NCBI GenBank assembly: GCA_963813715.1 | Contig: CAWFAK010000005.1 | Span: forward strand, 480,001 to 544,000 | Source: an uncultured Planctomycetaceae bacterium | GTDB lineage: Bacteria; Planctomycetota; Planctomycetia; Planctomycetales; Planctomycetaceae | Direction of reading: 5' to 3' | Length of the DNA stretch: 64,000 nt | Part shown: positions 12,763-47,200 of the stretch, piece by piece | Numbering within the stretch: the stretch's first letter is position 1 | Layout: each line of letters begins with the position of its first letter | Notes under the pieces: generated by a model | Told to the model about the DNA's origin: nothing | Seen by the model: the letters and a program-made list of their open reading frames with translations, nothing else | Databases searched by the model: none | Program-made: the position numbers and the translations under genes

Positions 12763-13392
12763 ATGAATTCCCCGCCCCCGCCCCTGCTGGACCTCAAGCC
12801 GTATTTCCTCACGCTCAACGATCTCTCGGCGCCGCTCGACTGGCCGGCCTTCTTCGGGAACGAGAATCCGGTCGAGCTGGATGTCGGCTGCGGCCGAGGA
12901 CTGTTCCTCTTCACCGCCTCGACATCGAATCCCGCGGTCAACTACCTGGGGCTGGAGCTCGATTATCACGAAGGGCGACGGGCCGCCAAGCGATTGTGGA
13001 AGCGCGAGCAGCCCAATGCGCGGGTGCTCGGCGGCGACGCGCGAATCGCCTTGGCCAAGCTCATCACGCCCCAATCGGTTGCCGCGGTGCACGTCTATTT
13101 CCCCGACCCGTGGTGGAAGCGGCGGCACAAGCGGCGGCGATTATTCACGGACGAATTTGTCGATCTAGCGGCCAGGGTGCTGCAGAGAGGCGGCTTGTTC
13201 CATTCCTGGACCGACGTGGAAGAATATTTCGGCGTGATTCGCGCTCTGATGGATCATCATCCGGCGTTCCAAAAGCTTCCGCCGCCCGAGGAGATTCGGC
13301 CGGCGCACGATCTCGATTACCGCACGAGCTTCGAGCGGAAAAAACGTCAGCTCGGCGCCACGATCTCTCGGGGGTTGTGGAAAAAGATGTGA
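12763..13392 (+). CDS. trmB: tRNA (guanine-N7)-methyltransferase
   Basis: ELDVGCGRG, YFPDPWWKRRHKRRR, TDVEEY, TSFERK. Confidence 0.93.
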   Translation: MNSPPPPLLDLKPYFLTLNDLSAPLDWPAFFGNENPVELDVGCGRGLFLFTASTSNPAVNYLGLELDYHEGRRAAKRLWKREQPNARVLGGDARIALAKLITPQSVAAVHVYFPDPWWKRRHKRRRLFTDEFVDLAARVLQRGGLFHSWTDVEEYFGVIRALMDHHPAFQKLPPPEEIRPAHDLDYRTSFERKKRQLGATISRGLWKKM

Positions 13393-13404
13393 CGGCCGGC
13401 GCCG

Positions 13405-27589: not shown

Positions 27590-30500
27590 TCAAGCGGCCT
27601 TGGGCCGAGGGGCAGCGGCGGCTTTGACCGGAGCGGGAGTCTTTGGCGCGGCATCCATCGGCGGGACTTTGACCTTCATTTGTCGCAGCAGCTGACAAGC
27701 CAGGGCATGCTCGACCCCCTGCCAGTCGTTCGCCTTGGCACAGCGAATTAGGTACTTCTTGGCCGACTCCAGGTCGCCGCGATCCTTGAGGAAGATGGCC
27801 ACGAAGTAGGGCAGCACCGATTGATTGAGCGTGCTCTTAGACGAAGCCAGAATCCGGTCGACTTCGCCAAAATCGAGCTGTTTGGCTTTTTCCGGCGGCA
27901 GCGCGTGCCGCATCTGCGCTGCGAGCGGACCGTAGAGCTGCGTCCCGCCCTCTCCGCCGCTGGGTTTCGCGGGAGCGTCCACGATCTTCTTGAGAAGGGC
28001 GTCTCGATCGGCGGTCTTGCCGATCGAATCTGCCGCGATGGCCGCGTGCAATCCCGAATCGAATTCGTGCGAGGCGTCGTAGCTCTGCTGCAAATGGGGC
28101 AGAGCATCTGCAGTGTCGCCCAGGATGAGGAAGTAAAAGCCGAAGTCCCGGCTTTGCCAGGGCGATAGATTTTTCCCCCACGCGGTCAACCGTTCGTGAG
28201 CGAAGGCATCGGCGGCATGGATGTCACCGTGCCCCGTGCGATGACACCAGCACATCCAGTTGAGGCGCGCGCGATCATCGTTCTCCGAGACAGTTTTCAC
28301 GAGGTGTTCGGCCTGATCCCACTCGTCGAGCAGTTCGTGGCAGCGGGCCGCCGTCATCAACGGCCCGGTGGAACCGCTTTTGGCTGCCGCATCGGCATAA
28401 ACCACCGCCTCCTTGACTCGATCCTGCTCGAGCAAGACCAGGGCAACGTCGTTTTGAAGTTGGGTGCGTTCGATTTCGTGCCCCGGTAGCTTGACCGCCT
28501 GGTCCAGCGTGGCTTTCCAATGCGCGTCGTCTTGCTTGGCTTTGTAAGTTGAAGCGAGCAGACGGTAGGCCGCGTAGCTGGGAGCCAATTCAGTTTCGCG
28601 CTTGGCACAGCGCTCGGCATCGTCGTAACGCTTCATTTCGTAGTAGCGCCGGGCCAGCGCGTTCATCACCAACGGATCATCGGCATAGGTGCGCTCGTAC
28701 TTGTCCGCCTGCTTCTGCACATGGTCCCAATCTCGCGAAATCCGGGATCGCAATCACGATGGGAAGCGTGTCGCTGGTGCTCCACAGCCGTTCTAAATTC
28801 TCCTTGGGAATCACGCCGTGATTCACCGAGCCGTTGAGCCCCGATTCGACATACCGCATTTGATCGCCGAGAGTCAGGTCGACGTGAGCTCCCGCCCTTT
28901 TTGAAAAAGGGGCCAGGCGAGGCCGCTTGGCAATCACAGAGATCCACTTCACGACGGGGACCTCCTTGTCGGTGAGCTCGTAAAGTCTGAATTTCCTCAA
29001 TGCTGCGGCGGCACCGGCCTTAATCTTCCCTTGATCCTGGGTAAACGAAGCGAGGTAGCCGCTGTCCGGGTGATCGACGACAAGCGGACCAAACGTGTCG
29101 ATGGTGTTCTCCACGGAAAGACCAAGCCCGCTGTGCTCGATCGTCAGCTTCCGCATCAGCTGGGCGAAGTTGATCTCCTCGATCGAGTGCGCCACCGCGG
29201 ACAGCGATGGTTCGGCGCGATCGGACGTTCCGGCCTGTTTGAGGTCGGCGATTGCCAGTTTGCCGAACTCGATGTCGGCCGCGCTGTCCTTGGAAGTATC
29301 GCTGCTCTTGAGCCGCTCCCTGAGAGACGTGGGAAGGCCGGGAACAGCAAGGAGCTGCTTATGCAGCAATTTGCCCGTCGCCGCCAGCCCTTTATTGGCC
29401 TGCTCGCGCGCCGATCCGGCCTCGCTGAACGAAGCAATCAAGTCGTAGCCGCGAGGGCAATCGGGACATTCTTCAAGAAACGCCTGGGCGGCTTTGACGC
29501 GCACATCGTTCAAGGAGCTGAACATCACGGCTTGCAGGTCGAGGTAGCGGGCGAGGCCGCGCTCGGGCGGCGTCTTCGCCAATTTCAGCATTCCCGCCAA
29601 TTGCCCTTGAGAAAAGGCGTCGAGGATCCCGGTCCAAAATGGGAGTGCCGTCGCCGCATCGCCCGATTTCTTTTTGGCTGCCGCGATGTCCGTCGCCGCC
29701 AGGGAGTCTGCGCCAAACAGCGTGCGCGCGTAGGCGCGATGCCAAAGCGCCCAGGGGGAACCGTCGCTTTCGTGCATCAACCGTTCCGCATAGAGGAGCG
29801 CGCGGGCATGGTAGGCTTTGTGCGCGGCGCTGTAATAAAACTCGGTCAGCGATCCGAGATTGGCGTAGCCGACGACCAGCGCCGCCAGCAGTTGGGGTGA
29901 TTCGCCCTTCTCGTGAATCTCGCCGTGAATTTGCCGCAAACCGCCCAAGACCGAGAGCTCGTTCCAACTCCAAAGTAAATCGGTCGCCTCGGCAGGCACT
30001 TCCGAGGAGGCTCGCGCCGCAGGCACGGATCCTTTTGCGCCGACTTGCGTCAGCACCTCTTTGAAATCGGTCCGCGACCAGGCTTCGGCCTTCGCGGCCG
30101 CGGTCGCGATCGATTGCGGCTCATTGAGGTCCACGTTGATGATGCCGCGCCAGATGCGTTCCTCCTCCGGACCGCGAGCGATCGCATAATCGATCCGCGT
30201 ACGCCGCGCCTCGCCCGACGGATCGACCGTCATCTGGAAGGGAACCGATTTCTTGTCCGGAGTCTTTGGAAAGTCTTCTCGCAATAAGCTGTCGCGTGTG
30301 GCGAGTCCCAGCTCATCGCGCGCGGTCAGTAAAATGCCCTGTCGCACCAGTTCTCGCAGCGCGAACGGCACGGCTTGGGTCGGTTGATCTCCAAGCTCTC
30401 GAACCGAGACGTAAATCGTGTCGCCGACTGCCTGAGGTTTGAGAGGCAAGGCGTCTGTAGCAGTCGTTGAATCGGACTTTATTCCCAGCGAGGGATCGCG

Positions 30501-31886: not shown

Positions 31887-32172
31887 CACGTGCTCCGGCG
31901 GCGCAGCCCTCAGAAGCGCGGCCCCGCCGATCGGTCGCCGCGATCTGCAGAAAAGATCTGAGCTTCCTCCGGAGCTTTCGGCAATTTGACCCTCGGCCGG
32001 CCGAAAACCGTGCTTGTTCCTACGAGGGGGCCGGTCGCTCGCTCCGCAGCTGTCGGGCGCCCGCCGGACTGAGCCGGAGGCAAAGCCCGATTTACGCAGA
32101 GGGTCTGGATTTTGAAGCTCGAGAAAGGTCACAATCACGGCTCGACGAATGTGAAATCGCGAGGGCCAGACG

Positions 32173-33558
32173 ATGAGCGATGAGTGGTACTCAGTTGTGG
32201 TCAGCGGGAACCGTGGTCCAATTGCGATCATTGGCCGGGCGTTGATTCTCATCGCCGCGGGCGGAACGTTGTTTGCCGCGACGCAGCAGTCGCTTGAGCC
32301 GGTCCAAAAAGCCACTGAAATCGCCGCTGTCGCGAGTCAGGATTCGCCCACCCGCAGCTCAAACTCGGCACAACCCGCCGCCTCTCGCGACAGTTTCGAC
32401 ATCCCTTGGCCGAGTGGCGAGCGCGAAGCCACTACCGACCAGGTCGACACGGGGAAGCTTCAAAAAATCATCCACGAGCACAACAAGCTGTACGCGCAAT
32501 GGAAGCGGGAGCGCCACAACTACCAAGAGCTGAGCAACCGGTTGACGAAAATCGGGACCAATCTACAAGGACTGATGAACCGGGCCGACGCCGTCGGCCA
32601 GACGATGAACAAGATTCGCGGCGTCCTCGGCGATCAGAATCTCTCAGACGCAGAAATCTTCGCGCCCCCGGAAACGCCGCGATGGGTGCAGTCGCTGTCC
32701 AAAACTTACACATTGCGAACGGGCGAGATGGGGAGGCTGAATGCCAAAGCGACGCGCGCAGTCAACGATTTCAACGCGACGCTGACCAAGCTCGACACCA
32801 ATATGGCCAACCAGCGACAGACCCTTTCCCGGGCGACGGAGTTGCGAGGCGAGTGGGTTCGGATCACGCGGCCATTCGGACTTTGGACCCGGCAAGACGT
32901 GCCGATCTCGATCGAAACCTCGACGCGGTGGATCCTCGACAATGAGGTCTTCGCACCGGCCTATCTGTCGCGGTGCGTCGCCGAGATCCGCCAAAGAAAG
33001 TTCGACAAGGCCAGCGAGGACATCGAGCTGGCCATCAAACGCGACCCCACCTGGGTTGAGCTCTACGGACTGCAGGCCGTGTTGCAGGATCGAGCGGGCA
33101 AGCATGCGGACGTCGACAAATCCCTGCGAATGATTCGTCGCCTCAAGAAAAAATCGGCCTTCGTCGAAGTGTGCGAAGGAATCATTTCGTCGTGGCACCA
33201 AAATCTCGAGGGAGCAAAAACCAAGTTTGGCGCGGCGACCAAGCACGATGCCTCCGATCCGGCCGGACAGGCGCAACTCGCTCTCTTGCTGATGACGTTT
33301 CCCAAGAGCGAGCTGCGCGATCCCGCGGCCGCGGTCGAGGCGGCGACGGCGGCGTGCAAAACAACGTCCTGGAACCAGTGGTGGTGCCTCGACGTCTTGT
33401 CGCTGACTTATGCCGCCAGCGGCGACTTCGATCGGGCCATCGGCTGTGCCAATCGGGCCAAGGAGGCAGCCCCCAGCGACGTCCAATCGCTTCTCGACGA
33501 GCGAATCGCCAGTTACAAGAAGAAGCAGGTCCCCGGAGCCGCCGTTGGCGACTTGTGA
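32173..33558 (+). CDS. Coiled-coil/TPR hypothetical protein
   Basis: N-terminal hydrophobic segment; C-terminal LRDPAAAVEAATAAC...LDVLSLTYAASGDFDRAI TPR-like module. Confidence 0.75.
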   Translation: MSDEWYSVVVSGNRGPIAIIGRALILIAAGGTLFAATQQSLEPVQKATEIAAVASQDSPTRSSNSAQPAASRDSFDIPWPSGEREATTDQVDTGKLQKIIHEHNKLYAQWKRERHNYQELSNRLTKIGTNLQGLMNRADAVGQTMNKIRGVLGDQNLSDAEIFAPPETPRWVQSLSKTYTLRTGEMGRLNAKATRAVNDFNATLTKLDTNMANQRQTLSRATELRGEWVRITRPFGLWTRQDVPISIETSTRWILDNEVFAPAYLSRCVAEIRQRKFDKASEDIELAIKRDPTWVELYGLQAVLQDRAGKHADVDKSLRMIRRLKKKSAFVEVCEGIISSWHQNLEGAKTKFGAATKHDASDPAGQAQLALLLMTFPKSELRDPAAAVEAATAACKTTSWNQWWCLDVLSLTYAASGDFDRAIGCANRAKEAAPSDVQSLLDERIASYKKKQVPGAAVGDL

Positions 33559-35188: not shown

Positions 35189-35322
35189 GCTCAGAACTCC
35201 GAAGGACAGTTTCCAATTCTAGAATCGGTCGCTGGGGCTAGTGGGCGCGGCAGTTCCCGCCGACTCCAATCCGGTCCAACGTCCCATCGAGTCTCGTATC
35301 CCGTCCCAATCCCAGAGACTTT

Positions 35323-35364
35323 CCCCCCTCGCCCCTTGCGGGAGAGGGGTCGGGGGTGAGGGGG
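35323..35364. repeat. REP-like palindromic element, copy 1
   Basis: CCCCCCTCGCCCCTTGCGGGAGAGGGGTCGGGGGTGAGGGGG. Confidence 0.7.
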
Positions 35365-35480
35365 TCCTCCCGTTCCATGTCCCGATCCCCGCCCGTCCCG
35401 TGCAATTCAGTCGTGTCCCGTTTCGTGTCCTAGTCCCGCGGTTCTCCCGACGATCTGCTGACAGGTCAAATTCGCCGGCA

Positions 35481-35673
35481 TTTTCTCGGTGAAACAACGT
35501 GTCCCGTCCCGCGGTGAGTTCCAAGTCCCGCGGAAGCGGCCAGTCTCTTTCCGTCTCGACTTCTCGGTCCCGTCCCTGTCTTTCCCCCTCGCCCGCCCGC
35601 TTCGGGTGGGAGAGGGTTGGGGTGAGGGCCAAATTCGTCGAGTTTTCTCGGTGAAACAACGTGTCCCGTCCCG
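35481..35673. repeat. 31-bp exact direct repeat (35481-35511 and 35643-35673)
   Basis: TTTTCTCGGTGAAACAACGTGTCCCGTCCCG occurs twice, each copy preceded by CAAATTCG. Confidence 0.9.
35584..35628. repeat. REP-like palindromic element, copy 2
   Basis: CCCCCTCGCCCGCCCGCTTCGGGTGGGAGAGGGTTGGGGTGAGGG. Confidence 0.65.
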
Positions 35674-35877
35674 TGTCCCGACCGCGCCGGCCGCTCAGAG
35701 AACCTGGGACCACGCGCCCGCGTCCGACCTCCATGCGGCCCGCGCGGTGGGTCCAGTTTCGCATTCCCCCCTTATGTTAAATGTGGTCCCGTCCCGCCGG
35801 GACCGGTTTTTACAGGACCCGCCGGGACCACTTGTCCCACCGGCAACTTTCTTTCCGCGTGTCCCGTCCCGCGTATC

Positions 35878-35967
35878 AGTCCAAAGTCCCAGGTCCAAAG
35901 TCCAAAGTTTCCGAGAGGCGGGTCCGCCGGTCCCCGACCTTGGACCTTGGACTTCGGACCTTGGACT
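35878..35967. repeat. Inverted blocks of tandem heptamers
   Basis: (AGTCCAA)-like units at 35878-35908 face (TTGGACC/T)-like units at 35937-35967. Confidence 0.7.
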
Positions 35968-36049
35968 CACCGGAAAGCGTCCGGACCGGACTTCGACCGT
36001 CCGCAGTCGGCTCACCGACGCTGCCGGGAATCTTTTTCTCCCCTATGTG

Positions 36050-36085
36050 AAAAAGGATCCCCACCACCGCCGGGGATCCTTTTTT
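36050..36085. terminator. Bidirectional intrinsic terminator-like hairpin
   Basis: AAAAAGGATCCCC-accaccgcc-GGGGATCCTTTTTT. Confidence 0.6.
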
Positions 36086-36279
36086 GTCCCGGCGGGGATC
36101 CTTTCACCAGCGGCCGAGACTCTGCAGACCGCAGACGCCGCGCAACCGCGCCGAGAGAAGCGGATCGCAATCCGCGCGCAGGCGATCGCTCGCGTGCAAA
36201 AGCCGCTCACTCTATTGAGCCACAAAAGCCCGATTCGGCCAAGATCAGTTTCGCGAAATTCGGGAGTGGCCAGCCGCGC

Positions 36280-36301
36280 GAGTTTGGCCGCTGGTCGGAC
36301 A
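36280..36301. repeat. Left copy of direct repeat flanking the defence-like cassette
   Basis: GAGTTTGGCCGCTGGTCG (36280-36297) is identical to 40945-40962; both continue into GACA after a 2-nt indel. Confidence 0.8.
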
Positions 36302-36303
36302 CG

Positions 36304-36334
36304 CCCGCGCGTCTGCCAATTCCGCCACAGGGCC
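36304..36334 (-). other. 5' fragment of a tRNA-Leu-like gene (att-like scar)
   Basis: Minus strand reads GGCCCTG-TG-GCGGAATTGGCAGACGC-G-CGGG (acceptor 5' strand, Leu-type D arm, start of anticodon stem), then similarity stops. Confidence 0.75.
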
Positions 36335-36341
36335 ACGGGAG

Positions 36342-37055
36342 TTACAGGGCGACGCCGGAATCTCTGTACTGCTTTCCGTTTGTAAAGGTCTCAAGACTCG
36401 AAAGAACGCCCCGCATAAATAGCACGATCTCGCTCGTCGCTTTGATGAGGTCGGCCGCAGTTACTTGCCTGCCACATTCCGCAAACGACTCGTCCCCGTG
36501 TGCCAAATTGTTTCGCTTGGACTTTACCGTGACTAGGGCTGCGCCTCCCAGTGCCGCGCTGTCTACGGCCATCGGCACACCGTGAGCATGGCATAGCTTT
36601 CGGATCTTTTCCGCGTCGAGGGTTCCTCCGTACGGAAGAAGATCCTTGCGCAGCGCCGCGACCGTCTTCTTCGCGATCTCGTCCACAATGCTGTTGGCAA
36701 TCTTCATGTACACATTTGGAGATCCGTCGAGCGGCTTGACCACTCGGTTCTTCTGTACAATCCATTGATTTCTCAGCGTTGCGGTTAACTCGATGCCGCA
36801 CAGCTGATCGCTTTTTATTGCCTGAAAGACCTCTTCAAAACCCTTCCTGATAAACGCTTCCACTAAGTTGTACAGGACCAGGTACAAAGACCCTTTGAGC
36901 ATCGGCCCCCAGTCCTGTGGTACCGGCTGTATCTGCGTCCCTCCCTCATCGACGTATGCCACTGCGTCGAACTCAACGGCAACGAGGAGGTCGCAGAACA
37001 ACTCGATTTCGCGCACCCGCTCTTCGAAGGCGTCCATCACATCCGCAAACATCAT
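36342..37055 (-). CDS. HEPN-domain protein (MAE_28990/MAE_18760-like), putative RNase
   Basis: LKGSLYLVLYNLVE, GTLDAEKIR and the RxxxxH motif RNNLAH followed by GDESF. ATGA overlap with the DUF262 gene. Confidence 0.85.
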   Translation of the reverse strand: MMFADVMDAFEERVREIELFCDLLVAVEFDAVAYVDEGGTQIQPVPQDWGPMLKGSLYLVLYNLVEAFIRKGFEEVFQAIKSDQLCGIELTATLRNQWIVQKNRVVKPLDGSPNVYMKIANSIVDEIAKKTVAALRKDLLPYGGTLDAEKIRKLCHAHGVPMAVDSAALGGAALVTVKSKRNNLAHGDESFAECGRQVTAADLIKATSEIVLFMRGVLSSLETFTNGKQYRDSGVAL

Positions 37056-38107
37056 GCCTCCCCAGCCAGTAGCTGATCGCGAACGAATTCAATGCGGCCA
37101 GCGAGGCGCGTTGCGGAATTGCTTCCGTGTGTCGTGGTGTGCTCTTTGAATTCTTGGGATTCAGTCCAGAGTGGCACGCCAGTCGGTACTAGATCGGGTT
37201 TTTTGCGTAATGCGAGATTGGTCCCGACTGCGATTGCCTCGAATCGCACGCGAGGAGTGGTCGTTGCATTCGCCGACTTCGCAAATCCAAACGGAAAGTA
37301 CTTTTGGACAAAGCGCATCGTTCTTTCGAACTCTTGCGAGAGCTTAGGTTCGTCGAAAGCGTCCTTATGGTCCTTGACAAAATCATCGAGAAAGTTGTCC
37401 ACGTCATGCGTGAATGACTTGTATCCTTCCGAGTATGCGAAGAATCTGGTCACAAGCTCTAGCGGCTCTCTCCGGAGATTCATTCTCTTGCTGAAGGGAC
37501 AAGTTTGCTTGAAAACCGGATCGTCCGCGCACTTCTCGAGAAAATCGACGAATGGCCCCTTGATGGCACCGCGCCGACGCTCGCTCGCCGTGATGGGGTG
37601 TCCCGACTTGTTGATCCTCTCGAATAAGTCCCGTCGGCTCTCTTCTGTGGTTTCCTGATCGAGAATCACGATTCTGAGTGCACGGCTTGTGAATTTCTCC
37701 CTTTGGCTCTCGGAGAGGCTCCTGAAGCGAAACCCATTAAGAGCAGTAAGCTTCTTCAGTCCGCTGAGCTCAAGGCTGTTCGACACAAAATCATCCAGGG
37801 TTTGGATGCGTTGAACCCCATCGACGATTTCAAATGTTCCTTCGTCGTCCTCGGCCAGGAACATCATAGGAATGGGGAGGCCCATAATTACCGACTCGAC
37901 GAAGTAGCTCTGGTCTTGTTCATTCCAGATGAATTCACGCTGGTATTGCGGGATCGTGAACTTGTTCTTCTGGAAGCGCGCGACAATGGTTTCGACCGGG
38001 AAATCCCGGGTGTCAAAGCGGACTTCTTTCTGGATTTGCCGAATTTGGTGTTCGGCCTTAAGGCGTTCTTCCGGACTTTTTGGCTCGTAATCTGGAAAAA
38101 GGGACAT
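37052..38107 (-). CDS. DUF262 (ParB/GmrS-like) domain protein
   Basis: IPQYQREFIW, FVESVIMGLPIP, IVDGVQR, FERINKSG. Confidence 0.9.
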   Translation of the reverse strand: MSLFPDYEPKSPEERLKAEHQIRQIQKEVRFDTRDFPVETIVARFQKNKFTIPQYQREFIWNEQDQSYFVESVIMGLPIPMMFLAEDDEGTFEIVDGVQRIQTLDDFVSNSLELSGLKKLTALNGFRFRSLSESQREKFTSRALRIVILDQETTEESRRDLFERINKSGHPITASERRRGAIKGPFVDFLEKCADDPVFKQTCPFSKRMNLRREPLELVTRFFAYSEGYKSFTHDVDNFLDDFVKDHKDAFDEPKLSQEFERTMRFVQKYFPFGFAKSANATTTPRVRFEAIAVGTNLALRKKPDLVPTGVPLWTESQEFKEHTTTHGSNSATRLAGRIEFVRDQLLAGEA

Positions 38108-38213
38108 CGGCTCGGCTCCCCTTGGAAATGGGCTCGAGGTTTCGGAGTCATTCTGTCATACTTGCCGCGCGGCCACTGACACAATCTGCGCTTGGACAAT
38201 CGCGGCTTCAACC

Positions 38214-39410
38214 ATGACCGAACGCGCGACGGCCCGAATTTCACTAAGAACCGCCGGGATTTTCGCTGGCATTGGGGGCCTAGAACTCGGTCTCCGCAGG
38301 CAAGGACATTCGACGCGATTGCTGTCAGAAATCGACGCTACAGCTCAAGCCGTGTTGCGCAAACAGTTCAAGGGCGTGCCGATTCTAGGGGACGTCCGAG
38401 CAATCCAGGAACTTCCCGAATGTGATCTAATTGCAGCGGGATTTCCCTGCCAGGATCTGAGCCAATGCGGAAAGACAAACGGTATCAGTGGCCGCCATTC
38501 TTCGCTCGTAAGAGAGGTTTTTCGGCTAGTCGAGACTGCTAATCGGCGGCCGGAATGGATTCTTCTCGAGAACGTTCCGTTCATGCTCAAACTCGACGGC
38601 GGTCGCGCACTGGCCTTTATCACAAATGAGCTTCAACGATTAGGGTATCGTTGGGCGTACCGAACCGTGAATGCGATGGCCTTCGGAGTGCCGCAACGGC
38701 GGCTGCGAGTAGTTCTCCTAGCCGCGCGGGGAGCAGCCAAAGAACGCAATGTTCGCAGACAATGCCGTAGAGCCGGATCACCCGAATGTGGCGGCAGGTT
38801 ATGGCTTCTACTGGACAGAGGGTGCGAGGGGACTCGGATGGGCCGCTGACGCTGTTCCGACACTCAAGGGAGGATCGACGATTGGGATTCCTTCGCCACC
38901 CGCGATTTGGATACCAGCCGAGCGCCGACTGGCGACCATTGACATCAGAGATGCCGAACGGCTCCAGGGGTTCCCGGTGAATTGGACCGCGGGTGGTGCC
39001 GTAGGTGCAAGAGAAGGAGCGCGATGGAGGCTTGTCGGAAATGCAGTCTGTGTGAGAGTCGCATCGTGGCTTGGAAAACAGCTAGCCCATCCTGGCATAA
39101 TGACGTGTGAAGTTGGATCGTCCGTCAAGCGGGGTGATCGATGGCCCAGCGCCGCCATTGGGGACGACGGGGACGTGAGGGAAGTGCTGGCGTCGACTTG
39201 GCCGGTTGCCCGTCGACAACGACCGATTCTTTCGTTTTTGCGATTCCCCCTGCGCCTCTCTCCGCTCGTGCCACGGCTGGATTTTTAAGTAGAGCGAGGA
39301 AAAGCAACCTCCGATTCGAATCCGATTTTATTCCGGATGTCGCCCATCATCTAAAGACGATCTCGGCCGGAAGTAAAAAACGTGTTCGCCGATCGGCGAT
39401 TCGGTGCTAA
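38214..39410 (+). CDS. dcm: DNA (cytosine-5)-methyltransferase (frameshifts ~38730, ~39252)
   Basis: Motifs I FAGIGG, IV GFPCQ, VI ENV, VIII PQRRLR, IX RLQGFP and X VGNAV across three consecutive ORFs. Confidence 0.9.
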
Positions 39411-39413
39411 ACG

Positions 39414-39818
39414 ATGGATACGCTAACGCCGGATAAACGCAGCCGGCTGATGGCCAAAATCCGCGACAAAGACACCAAGCCGGAATGGATCGTCCGTCGC
39501 TTGATCCATTCGATGGGTTTTCGGTTTCGCCTGCACAGAAAGGACTTGCCGGGAGGGCCAGATCTTGTGTTCCCTGCAATGTCGAAGGTCATCTTTGTTC
39601 ACGGGTGCTTCTGGCATCGACATCGATGCCGCTTGACTACGACACCGAAAACCAACGTTGGATTCTGGAACAATAAGTTTTCCGAGAATGTGCTGAGGGA
39701 CAAGAAAAACATTCGGAGACTCAAGGGATCCCACTGGCGGGTGCTGGTGATTTGGGAGTGTCAAACAAGAAATGCCGCACTTCTCAAGAAGCGAGTGCGC
39801 GAATTTCTCGAGAAGTGA
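39414..39818 (+). CDS. vsr: Very-short-patch repair endonuclease
   Basis: MDTLTPDKRSRLM, DTKPE, FVHGCFWHRH, FWNNKF, WRVLVIWEC. Confidence 0.95.
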   Translation: MDTLTPDKRSRLMAKIRDKDTKPEWIVRRLIHSMGFRFRLHRKDLPGGPDLVFPAMSKVIFVHGCFWHRHRCRLTTTPKTNVGFWNNKFSENVLRDKKNIRRLKGSHWRVLVIWECQTRNAALLKKRVREFLEK

Positions 39819-40153
39819 AACCGCCAGAGGCGATTTCGAACATTCGGGCTCGTCCTCTGGGCTTTGACGCTCATCGACCCGCACAGCCTCGACCGCTCCT
39901 CTCTGGAGCACTCGTGGTTTCGGGACTGCAATCTAAACGCCCGTGATTCAAACGTGCCCTACAGTAGTGCCTGCCAGTTGAAACCGGATTTTTAGGGTTT
40001 GGCACGGGAGTTCAGAACAGATCTGGCGAAATCAGAAAAGACGCCGTCGCCAGAACCCCGAGAACAGGCAGCGCGGCTGGAATGACGAACCGGATTCGGT
40101 CCGCCCGCCGGGAGCCGTGCGGGGCTCCATAGGAGTATCGCTGCGGCAATCAT

Positions 40154-40459
40154 CTAGAGAAGGACGGCTACCGTGCAGCCGATCGCATGTCGCGCGAATC
40201 GTGTGCTTATGCCGTCATTTCTAGCGGAGCTCGAATCGCGCCAAGCGGCGAAGGGACCGCTTTGCTGCGGCGAGCTTGGGGCTCGCCCGACTCCGCTTTT
40301 GCAGGATAGATCATGGAGCGTGATCGAAAGGTCGCGGGCCGTGTTGTAAGCCTTGTCTGCGGCCCGCAGCAGTTCGTCCGCGTGCGGAAAGCCCCGCGAG
40401 TTCATCCGCCTTCTCAGGGGGCCGAGATAGTGCACGTAAGGCGACACAAACACCGACAT
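40154..40459 (-). CDS. Small hypothetical protein, possibly 5'-truncated
   Basis: YLGPLRRRMNSRGFPHADELLRAADKAYNTARDLSITLHDLSCKSGVGR reads as protein-like and recalls a small planctomycete family; not verified. Confidence 0.4.
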   Translation of the reverse strand: MSVFVSPYVHYLGPLRRRMNSRGFPHADELLRAADKAYNTARDLSITLHDLSCKSGVGRAPSSPQQSGPFAAWRDSSSARNDGISTRFARHAIGCTVAVLL

Positions 40460-44254: not shown

Positions 44255-47200
44255 TCAGTTCGCGCTGGGCGTCGGTTCGGTCGGTTGAGCTGAGGCCGTT
44301 TTCTCGGCCTCTTTCTGGTAGACGGGAATCAGCTCGGCCCGGTACGAGCGTAACGGTCGCGTCAGCTCCCGTTCGACCACGGCGCGGCGGGCCGACCAAT
44401 CCGATTCCCGCACGCCGACCTCGCTTCTCAGCCGATCCATCAGCGAAAGCGTCGATTCGACCGCGTCGATGCAACGTTCCAGATCGTTGAGCACGACTTG
44501 CGGCAACGCCGGTTTGCCCATTCCGCGGTTCGCCCAGCGACCCTGCAAGAAACCCAACATGGCATTGAGGTAGTCCCACCGCTGTTCCGCTGAGGCGAGC
44601 CGCGGCTCTTGAATCAGAAGGTCCATCGCATCGACGACGTCCCGGACGGAGTGGTCGCGCGGGTCGCTGTAATAGATGGTGTAGAGCCGGTGCTGCAACT
44701 GCGCGAACGAACCGGACGCCTCTGACCGGGCATAGAACGCGGCCAGCTCATGATGGAGGAAATAGGTCAGCACCGGGTCGAACGGTTCGGCAAATTCTTC
44801 GAGATGACGCAGTGATTCCAGCGACGGGTGTGCCGCGCTGGCAACCTTGCCGAGCGCCGTGAAGTAGTCGACCCGTCGACGATCGACGGGATCCAGCCGA
44901 CGCTCAAAGCCCGCTTCACCGTTCTCGATGGTCGTGTGCGGATGTTTGGTCAATTCTTCGCGCAAGAGCTTGCGATAGGCCCACGGTTGATCGGTGTAGG
45001 AGGTCATCATGTCGTGCTCGCGCATCACGTCCGATAGTCGCCGCAACAGCTCCGGGTCGTTCCCGTCGACGTTGGGCCACTGGGCGATCCGGCCGGCGTG
45101 GGGCGCGAGGACGACCGCCAGCTCCTCGTTCTTCGGGGCCCAGCGCATCGTTTCTTGCGGCAGCCGAAACGCGAACAGTCCGTTCGCGGCCGTATTGACA
45201 GCCGCCCCGCGTGTGAGAGCCTGGCAATCATCGCCCGCGTAGGCCGCCAGGTTCAGCGCGATCGACCAGTCCCAGCCGAGGTGGGCCAACGTCCGTCGTG
45301 CCTGCGGCGTTTGAAACCGCTCGAGCAGGTTGGGGCGAGCGAGCCCTTTTTCTGACCGCGTGGCCACCAGGGCCAGTTCTCCGGGAGCGACCTCGAGCGC
45401 AGCGACGTGCGGAAAGACCGATTGCAATGTCGCCAGGACGCTCTGGAGCGGCCAAGGGCCAAAGTCGACCTCTTGGAAGCGCTGGGCGAAGATTCCGTCT
45501 TTGGTCAGCTGCCGGGCGGCGGCGGCGTAGAATTCGCGCGTGTAGTGCGACGTGCCCTGTGAAACGCCCGACTGCCCCAAGTCGGCATAGATCACGTCGT
45601 ACGAGCCGCCCTTGGACTGCACAGCCAGGCTCGGTTCGACGCAGAGGATTCGTGCGCGGTTGTCGAGGCGCGGGTTGGGCTCTGCGGCCGACCAGACCGT
45701 GCTTTCGAGAACGTCGATCAGCGCTCGGTCCGCCTCGACGCAGGTGACGTCTTCGATAGGAAATTCCAGGCAAGACGCCAGACCGCTGCCGCTGCCCAAC
45801 CCCAAGATCAACACGTGACGCGGCGCCTCGTGCAGCACCAAAGGCAGGACGGACGGGACGATTTCGCCGGAAAATTGGGGGCCAATTTCGGGCCGCGGGC
45901 AAAAGGTCCCGCAGGGGACGCCGCTTTCCCTTAGCGAAAGCTGCATCCCTCGTTGCTTCCACACAGTGTAAGTGCCGCATTCCCCTTCCCGCTGCGCGAG
46001 CAGGCGGCTGTCGTCGAGAAACGGGAGCAGGCGGCTCTCCTCCGCGTTTCGCCAGGCCATGAAGACGTTGGTCGAGAACAGGAGCCGCGCTGAACGCGAC
46101 GGCTCATAGGTATGGCCCAAGGCACCCACCGCCAACAATGTTGCGGCAGCGATCCATCCGGCGCCCGCGAGCAACTTGCCGCGAGCCGCGACCGCGCGGA
46201 ACACAGCAACGCTGGCAAATGTCGCCGGCAACAAAGCGCCGACCGCCACCAAGAGAGGCAGCGACACTCCGAGCAAAATCAGCCAACGCGCGCCGATCAG
46301 ACCTGCAACAAGAGCCGGGCCGCTGATTGCCAGAAACCTCGGGTGCCGGTCACTTGCGCTCTCGCGGGCCGCCGCCTCGCTCACTGTCCCCCAACTGACA
46401 AGCGCCGCCCAAAGAGCACCGGCGGCGGAGAGGACAACGGCGACGGCCAATCCACGGACCAAGAACAGAAGCGCAACGTTCGAGAGGGTCGCCGTGGCTG
46501 CGAGAAACAGATCCGTCAAAGACCAGAAGAACACGACCGGCAGCGCAGCAGGTCAGCGCCGAGACCACGACAACCAGCGCCATTCGCGGCAGCCGCCATT
46601 CGCTGCGTTCGGCGTAAACGAATCGCCAACTGGCCGCGGCTCCGAGCAAGAAGCCGGCGCAGGCCGTCCACTCGATCGCTTCGGTTCCCGGCATCAGTTG
46701 TTGGACCAGTCGCGCCAGCGAGCCGGCAGTCAGACCGGCGGCAACCGAAGCGAAAACAATCGCCGCAAACGTCAGCGCTCCCGGCGTCTTCGACAGTCGC
46801 GACGGCCACACGCTCGTCGGTCATCAGGTCGTGGTTCGAGGGTCGATGGACCGCCGCCCGCGCCACCCAAGCCGCTGTTACGACGGCAGCGAATCCACCG
46901 GTCCACTGCAGGCCGATCCACGGGCCCAATCCGTAGGCCGTGATCAGGCAGCCGACGCCGGCGCCAAAGCATCCCCAAGCGCCGTCGAATGTCCTGTTTC
47001 CCAACGCCAGTCGTGCCCCACAGGCGGCTGGCACCGCCACCAGCAAAAGAGCCGTCCCCAGCGCCGCTGCGAACTGCGCCTCCGGAGAGGCGAGGGCACT
47101 TAACTCAAAGGATCCATAAACCGATCCCATTCGGTCGGCGAACCAACTGCTGAGCAAGATCCAAATCGCGGGGACGAGAGCGACGATCGCTGACGCCGCG

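Follow-up and report, generated by a model that had tools for sequence, protein, structure and literature searches.

The 64,000-nt window analysed here (GenBank assembly GCA_963813715.1, contig CAWFAK010000005.1, positions 480,001 to 544,000 of the forward strand, from an uncultured Planctomycetaceae bacterium) carries a four-gene cassette at 36342-39818, in which genes for a HEPN protein and a DUF262 protein on the minus strand are divergent from genes for a C5 cytosine DNA methyltransferase and a Vsr repair endonuclease on the plus strand. The cassette was probably acquired horizontally as a methylation-linked module of the DUF262-HEPN kind with a role in defence. Cassettes of this type are real and widespread; they were predicted in 2013, have a relative among experimentally tested anti-phage systems, and do not represent a new kind. 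The features are listed below; coordinates are positions in the whole window, and genes were taken from the open reading frame (ORF) listing and its translations.

36342..37055, minus strand: predicted RNase of the HEPN MAE_28990 family, 237 aa (Pfam PF18737, Rx4H motif)
37052..38107, minus strand: DUF262 / ParB-Srx-like NTPase-type protein, 351 aa (Pfam GmrSD_N)
38108..38213, no strand: divergent intergenic spacer, 106 bp (ORF coordinates)
38214..39410, plus strand: C5 cytosine DNA methyltransferase, frame interrupted twice (Pfam DNA_methylase, both pieces)
38728..38731, plus strand: first frame break, one surplus base in a GGGG run (tblastn against intact homologues)
39255..39256, plus strand: second frame break, one base short, restoring the first frame (tblastn against intact homologues)
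39414..39818, plus strand: Vsr very-short-patch repair endonuclease, 134 aa (Pfam, NCBIfam and PADLOC)
36263..40443, no strand: strain-specific insertion of about 4.2 kb containing the cassette (blastn against the relative G002)

Gene content and layout of the cassette

The stop codon of the DUF262 gene and the start of the HEPN gene share 4 bases, the DUF262 and methyltransferase genes lie head-to-head 106 bp apart, and 3 bp separate the methyltransferase stop from vsr. The coupling of the first two genes and the 106-bp head-to-head spacing are as given by the original prediction, made by a model from the sequence, and Pfam searches on all four genes proved its domain calls right. The lower GC content that it had pointed out was also recovered, at 0.546 for the cassette (54.6%) and 0.559 for the insertion, against 0.621 for the window (62.1%) and 0.617-0.623 for the flanks. 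A simple scan of the 106-bp divergent spacer gave no sigma-70-like promoter match.

Both pieces of the methyltransferase matched Pfam DNA_methylase and the PADLOC model MTase_II (PDLC03324), and vsr was recovered by Pfam Vsr (102.8 bits), NCBIfam TIGR00632 (139 bits) and the PADLOC Vsr model; dcm and vsr are the only NCBIfam names in the cassette. Searches of all ORFs of the insertion with Pfam, PADLOC and NCBIfam recognised no DNA endonuclease besides Vsr, in agreement with the absence of a classical restriction enzyme that had been noticed beforehand, and the restriction endonuclease gene that adjoins the methyltransferase in a classical type II restriction-modification (R-M) system is missing from the insertion.

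The HEPN and DUF262 proteins

The HEPN protein matched Pfam HEPN_MAE_28990 (PF18737), scoring 62 bits where the cut-off is 26.8, and PF18737 was present in all 129 homologues found at E<=0.001 in a large protein collection. Its motif, R181-NNLA-H186, is intact as predicted: R181, L184, A185, H186 and G187 are invariant across 36 aligned homologues. An AlphaFold2 (AF2) model (predicted local distance difference test, pLDDT, 93.7) compared in an all-against-all structural aligner placed HEPN proteins at the top of the ranking with Z of 6-7.8, the neighbours being YutE, 4nqf, sacsin HEPN, HEPN toxins, Csm6, SO_3166, HepS and AbiA. These Z values are middling alone, yet the modelled fold is consistent with the Pfam match and the motif. 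Foldseek gave zero matches of the model in the PDB, a sequence search of the PDB returned designed helical proteins only, and no PADLOC model matched the HEPN protein even at E<=10.

The DUF262 protein matched Pfam GmrSD_N (87 bits), and its motifs are invariant in 36 aligned homologues (YQR at 55-57, the nucleotide-binding motif D96 G97 x Q99 R100, and F162 x R164 x N166), as are several C-terminal residues. No Pfam match was found outside residues 46-179, and a DUF1524 or His-Me nuclease domain is absent; the protein is 351 aa long, compared with 560-818 aa in the solved relatives. Its best PADLOC match is NsnA (PDLC03877, 3.4e-61), followed by PD-T4-2_A (1.1e-29), and a further match to REase_II is limited to the ParB-like N-terminal domain (residues 46-190). 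In the AF2 model (pLDDT 89.7) the C-terminal domain is helical and a nuclease domain is lacking; the top Foldseek rows of the model, SspE, BrxU, ParB CTPases and DndI, are weak (all E>0.001, probability 0.9-0.99).

Conservation of the pair and its linkage to C5 methyltransferases

Scanning contigs at one genome per species yielded 430 relatives, and 80 HEPN loci were kept for counts. In 78 of these 80 loci, from many phyla, the gene immediately upstream of HEPN and in the same orientation is DUF262, and the remaining two are interrupted by a contig end; the pair is a conserved unit. Where both genes are full length (n=63), 50 pairs overlap, the overlap being exactly 4 bases in 34 of them, and the two genes are no more than 10 bp apart in 58, although these counts rest on start codons picked heuristically. 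As a side observation, a gammaproteobacterial locus (L010, 2259-5508) has the DUF262-HEPN pair followed by two more tandem DUF262 genes.

A habitual linkage of the pair to C5 methyltransferases was recovered as well, with such a gene <=3.5 kb from the pair at 51/80 loci, often overlapping it or in the same operon. In 52 well-flanked loci (>=1.5 kb on both sides), 35 have the methyltransferase and 17 do not, so the pair can stand alone. The 51 linked loci are arranged in several ways: the methyltransferase is convergent downstream in 25, co-directional upstream only in 15, co-directional downstream only in 6, co-directional on both sides in 2 and divergent as in the window in 3 (L005 counted). 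On a DUF262 tree built by a quick method the methylase-less state needs 3 changes. The arrangements need at least 10, which argues for functional linkage rather than inherited synteny. For the 29 loci that lack a C5 methylase, Pfam searches on 128 neighbour ORFs gave mostly housekeeping genes, with an N6/N4 methylase within 3.5 kb only at L023 and L050.

Two clades of six account for most of the methylase-less state; one of them contains a locus at a contig edge, whose state is unknown. Residues with 90-100% conservation elsewhere are altered in these two clades almost solely at DUF262 203-343 (window 37079-37501, minus strand), with replacements at, for example, P204, F232, P285, R288, W314, T324 and N330, while the N-terminal NTPase motifs are almost untouched (F/Y31 only) and one HEPN residue is changed. 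This comparison, of two independent clades only, gives a weak hint that the C-terminal domain of the DUF262 protein may be the methylation-related part.

The original prediction had further proposed to check whether DUF262-HEPN co-occurs with the particular methyltransferase subfamily of the window, and a specific tie was not supported. In the reverse view, 80 metagenomic loci of that subfamily (49-89% identity) have Vsr in 56 and DUF262-HEPN in 3; among the pair loci, the window's subfamily is found in 6/80 and Vsr in 7/80. Set against 51/80 pair loci with a C5 methylase, the 3/80 subfamily loci indicate that the link is one between the pair and C5 methylases generally.

As in Dcm-Vsr pairs, the C5 methyltransferase of the window is directly followed by vsr. 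Unlike the window, methyltransferase-Vsr loci elsewhere often hold an ORF between the two genes: in 24/54 such loci a gap of >450 bp holds an ORF, and 14 of these gap ORFs (about 280-380 aa stop-to-stop, mostly about 290) form one homologous cluster, examples being L101:5346-6239, L110:2048-2941 and L136:5627-6520, plus 11 more metagenomic loci. Eight representatives had no Pfam or PADLOC match, and no trace of the cluster was found in the window. By its position, the gap ORF is a candidate uncatalogued restriction endonuclease.

The interrupted frame of the methyltransferase

Searching with the intact homologues L005, L012 and L015 by tblastn placed the methyltransferase successively in window frames +1, +2 and +1, the breaks being a surplus G in the GGGG run (38728-38731) and a missing base at about 39255-39256; read through both breaks, the gene stops at 39408-39410. 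Comparison with the 92-97% identical relative G002 gave 37 single-base indels per 25.4 kb of alignment, and three genes that are single ORFs in G002, of 530, 772 and 870 aa, are spread over two to three frames in the window, amounting to four frame breaks. The assembly thus appears indel-prone and every frameshift in the window calls for caution; given this indel rate and these four breaks, the two in the methyltransferase are indistinguishable from the assembly background. The four breaks against G002 lie at window 13372-13403, 28749-28765, 29689-29756 and 46546-46551.

Most likely, to judge from these alignments, the frame breaks in the methyltransferase are assembly errors and not inactivation. 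The opposite case, in which this strain has a genuine methyltransferase pseudogene and the cassette is a decaying remnant that no longer works as a unit, would account for two breaks inside 1.2 kb, and independent public contigs cover neither break site. We regard it as distinctly unlikely, since both breaks are single-base events in short G or C runs whose phases cancel, the frame breaks in three genes intact in G002 suggest an indel-prone assembly, and the HEPN, DUF262 and vsr genes are full length with all invariant residues kept.

Acquisition as a discrete insertion and carriage on phages and plasmids

The flanks that lie at window 36262 and 40444, 4181 bp apart here, are separated by 80 bp in G002. 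Searching G002 contig C16 against the window by blastn matched L091 position 2544 to 36262 and 2624 to 40444. The flanking genes of the insertion encode a gluconokinase and a trans-aconitate methyltransferase. Searches of 40 other genomes (41 counting G000; 11 from the same genus) gave no DUF262 orthologue, the best non-self DUF262 match being 30% identical. No integrase, transposase or flanking direct or inverted repeat was found at the insertion boundaries.

Several observations concern the surroundings of the insertion. The cassette is inserted at the edge of a noncoding region (35213-36262) with short dispersed repeats, among them elements of about 46 bp (35319-35364) and about 90 bp (36021-36113) that have dozens of copies in G002, G003 and G004; these copies are 80-100% identical in same-genus genomes and look like a family of the repetitive extragenic palindrome/miniature inverted-repeat transposable element (REP/MITE) type. 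A 1.6-kb stretch at 31887-33461 with a tetratricopeptide repeat (TPR) ORF is missing from G002, and to the right of the cassette, 40208-43070 matches two G002 contigs in alternation, as a mosaic, variable region.

Relatives of the cassette are also carried on mobile elements. By tblastn, the DUF262 protein was located in the E. coli P2-like phage P2_4B2, at 40% identity, and in nine Moraxella phages, at 37.5%. P2_4B2 and Mcat32, the one Moraxella phage examined, both have DUF262, then a PF18737 HEPN gene and a convergent C5 methylase, and in P2_4B2 this triad adjoins gene A. Relatives of HEPN annotated as 'MAE_28990/MAE_18760 family HEPN-like nuclease' occur on ten plasmids, in some cases next to DUF262 genes. 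Methylase-less combinations of DUF262 with a second gene were observed in two temperate phages, Klebsiella phage ST16-OXA48phi5.4 (L177, 2363-4266) and Vibrio phage PE003 (L178, 2393-4665); one pair lies between P2-like tail genes, and the 355-aa partner in the other is annotated RiboL-PSP-HEPN. The DUF262 proteins of both match PD-T4-2_A, and their partners match no PADLOC model.

Mobility of this kind would also suit an addiction module that chiefly maintains itself in the manner of a type II R-M system, in which loss of the methyltransferase dilutes 5-methylcytosine (m5C) and frees the RNase, giving post-segregational arrest with phage defence as a secondary effect. The mobile low-GC insertion, the carriage on prophages and plasmids and the R-M-like layout all fit such a module. 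Against it, stand-alone DUF262-HEPN clades exist and the related PD-T4-2 pair gives real phage protection according to the available text of Vassallo et al. (PMC9519451), so that we consider this explanation highly improbable.

Relation to known systems

The neighbourhood was included in Table 1 of Anantharaman, Makarova, Burroughs, Koonin and Aravind (Anantharaman et al. 2013, Biol Direct 8:15; PMC3710099), which lists a MAE_28990 HEPN with ParB/DUF262 and a DNA methylase. The window shares all three elements, namely a MAE_28990 HEPN, an adjacent DUF262 operon gene and an adjacent DNA methylase. Section 10 of the same paper proposes that R-M-linked HEPN RNases are PrrC-like and serve as a suicide or second-line arm. 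In the parts of it available to us, the 2013 description is computational only, terms the ParB-like protein a nuclease, and comes without counts, Vsr or stand-alone forms; what is added here are frequencies, arrangements, phage carriage and structure models.

The other close relative is PD-T4-2, described as 'DUF262, HEPN' from E. coli ECOR65 in the available text of Vassallo et al. 2022 (PMC9519451), where it protects against T4 both natively and in K-12, and where T4-selected systems in general are also protective against T2 and T6. The likeness was judged via PADLOC models and published descriptions. Like the window's pair, PD-T4-2 consists of two genes, DUF262 and HEPN, and PD-T4-2_A aligns nearly end to end (DUF262 residues 45-333 on model positions 47-348 of 363). 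The PD-T4-2_B model (PDLC04028, 168 positions) is different: it matched neither the window's longer HEPN protein (237 aa) nor anything in the whole genome at E<=10. A PADLOC match to a known defence system was obtained for the DUF262 protein, with NsnA and PD-T4-2_A, and not for the HEPN protein with PD-T4-2_B. Novelty of the unit is not supported: the neighbourhood was already tabulated (PMC3710099) and a DUF262 + HEPN pair, PD-T4-2, was experimentally validated (PMC9519451). The available text of a 2026 preprint cites PD-T4-2 merely as a HEPN-containing system, and a search of the literature from 2022 on for DUF262, HEPN and cytosine methyltransferase together found no mechanistic study.

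The best PADLOC match of the window's DUF262 protein, NsnA, belongs to Menshen (NsnABC), reportedly described by Millman 2022. The window shares with it the NsnA-like ParB-DUF262 protein and differs in that no NsnB ATPase or NsnC effector occurs among the five cassette proteins, the downstream gene encoding a HEPN instead. In the available text of Li et al. 2025 (NAR, PMC12065111), NsnA is a ParB-DUF262 protein with a DNA-binding domain and a sensor role, and the term HEPN has 0 occurrences in that paper. In excerpts of PMC10952713 and PMC12065111, PD-T4-2, Dazbog and Menshen count as DUF262 systems that lack DUF1524 and are uncharacterised. GmrSD, BrxU, SspE and DndI have the N-terminal ParB/Srx-like DUF262 domain with DGxQR in common with the window's protein, which differs from them in having no DUF1524/His-Me domain, a separate HEPN effector and a neighbouring writer of m5C, not phosphorothioate. 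SspE senses host DNA modification and couples it to an effector, as stated in the available part of PMC10952713, and DndI likewise couples host-modification sensing to an effector, according to the title of its structure entry.

Discussion

Combining the domain, comparative and literature evidence, a mechanism can be sketched. By analogy with SspE, BrxU and ParB, the DUF262 protein may act as a DNA-bound sensor and NTP-driven switch that would keep the HEPN RNase inactive. The partner methyltransferase would write m5C on host DNA, to be read by the sensor as self, and Vsr would mend T:G mismatches arising from m5C deamination. The wrong cytosine-modification state, in unmethylated or hypermodified phage DNA, would flip the switch, upon which HEPN would cut tRNA or mRNA and the growth of the infected cell would stop in an abortive-infection-like manner. 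In its most specific form, which we put forward only tentatively, the triad would be an R-M system with an RNase restriction arm, in which a ParB-like, NTP-driven clamp reads m5C via its conserved C-terminal domain as self and unmethylated incoming DNA licenses translation shutdown by HEPN with no DNA cleavage; such cassettes would provide methylation-gated abortive infection.

Several points weigh against the methylation-linked defence reading and are gathered here. The 17 of 52 well-flanked loci that have no adjacent C5 methyltransferase form persistent clades, so that a dedicated methylase for self-marking is no strict requirement. In the available text of PMC9519451, the cloned PD-T4-2 is active as two genes, methylase-free. 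GmrSD and BrxU attack modified, not unmodified, DNA in the available part of PMC10952713, which fits poorly with a neighbouring m5C writer. No fused DUF262-HEPN protein was found among the longer proteins, which is weak evidence, and a full-text literature search by MAE_28990/PF18737 returned the 2013 paper only, with no experiment on the HEPN family. Four public read runs contain identical cassette fragments and cover neither frameshift site.

The stand-alone clades and PD-T4-2 keep two other models alive. The first is a type IV-like trigger, in which DUF262 senses hypermodified cytosines in phage DNA, such as hydroxymethylcytosine (hmC) and glucosyl-hmC, and activates HEPN, the C5 methyltransferase and Vsr being separate or accessory. 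T-even phage DNA contains glucosyl-hmC. The N-terminal similarity of the DUF262 protein to BrxU and SspE fits this model, as do the 17/52 methyltransferase-free loci and the window's methyltransferase subfamily, which occurs without the pair in 77/80 loci. PD-T4-2 was moreover selected on T4, and T4-selected systems generally cover T2 and T6, by the available text of PMC9519451. We nevertheless find a type IV-like trigger unlikely: the methyltransferase sits in the pair's operon at many loci with ORFs overlapping or near-abutting, the linkage was re-formed in at least four arrangements, and it is C5-specific, an N6/N4 methylase being present only at L023 and L050 among the 29 C5-less loci.

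The second is a guard of the PrrC type, in which DUF262-HEPN would watch the methyltransferase or the methyl-donor supply and fire when a phage anti-restriction factor or an S-adenosylmethionine (SAM)-degrading enzyme disables it. By analogy with PrrC-EcoprrI, such a role has been put forward for HEPN families linked to R-M systems (PMC3710099), and a guard is also the second option of the original prediction. The pair occurs, however, with differing methyltransferase subfamilies (6/80 window-like) or with none, and methyltransferases that vary or are absent sit poorly with a guard that depends on a specific protein-protein contact; the modelled DUF262 protein also appears to conserve an architecture of the DNA-binding type. 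A guard is accordingly quite improbable in our estimate.

DUF262-HEPN(-C5 methylase) cassettes are common, with 430 relatives found, and are carried on prophages and plasmids; since PADLOC lacks a model for the MAE_28990-type partner, routine defence-finding tools probably underestimate how often they occur. The copy in the window is nothing new in kind, and offers a clean case in which the cassette forms a discrete insertion of 4.2 kb.

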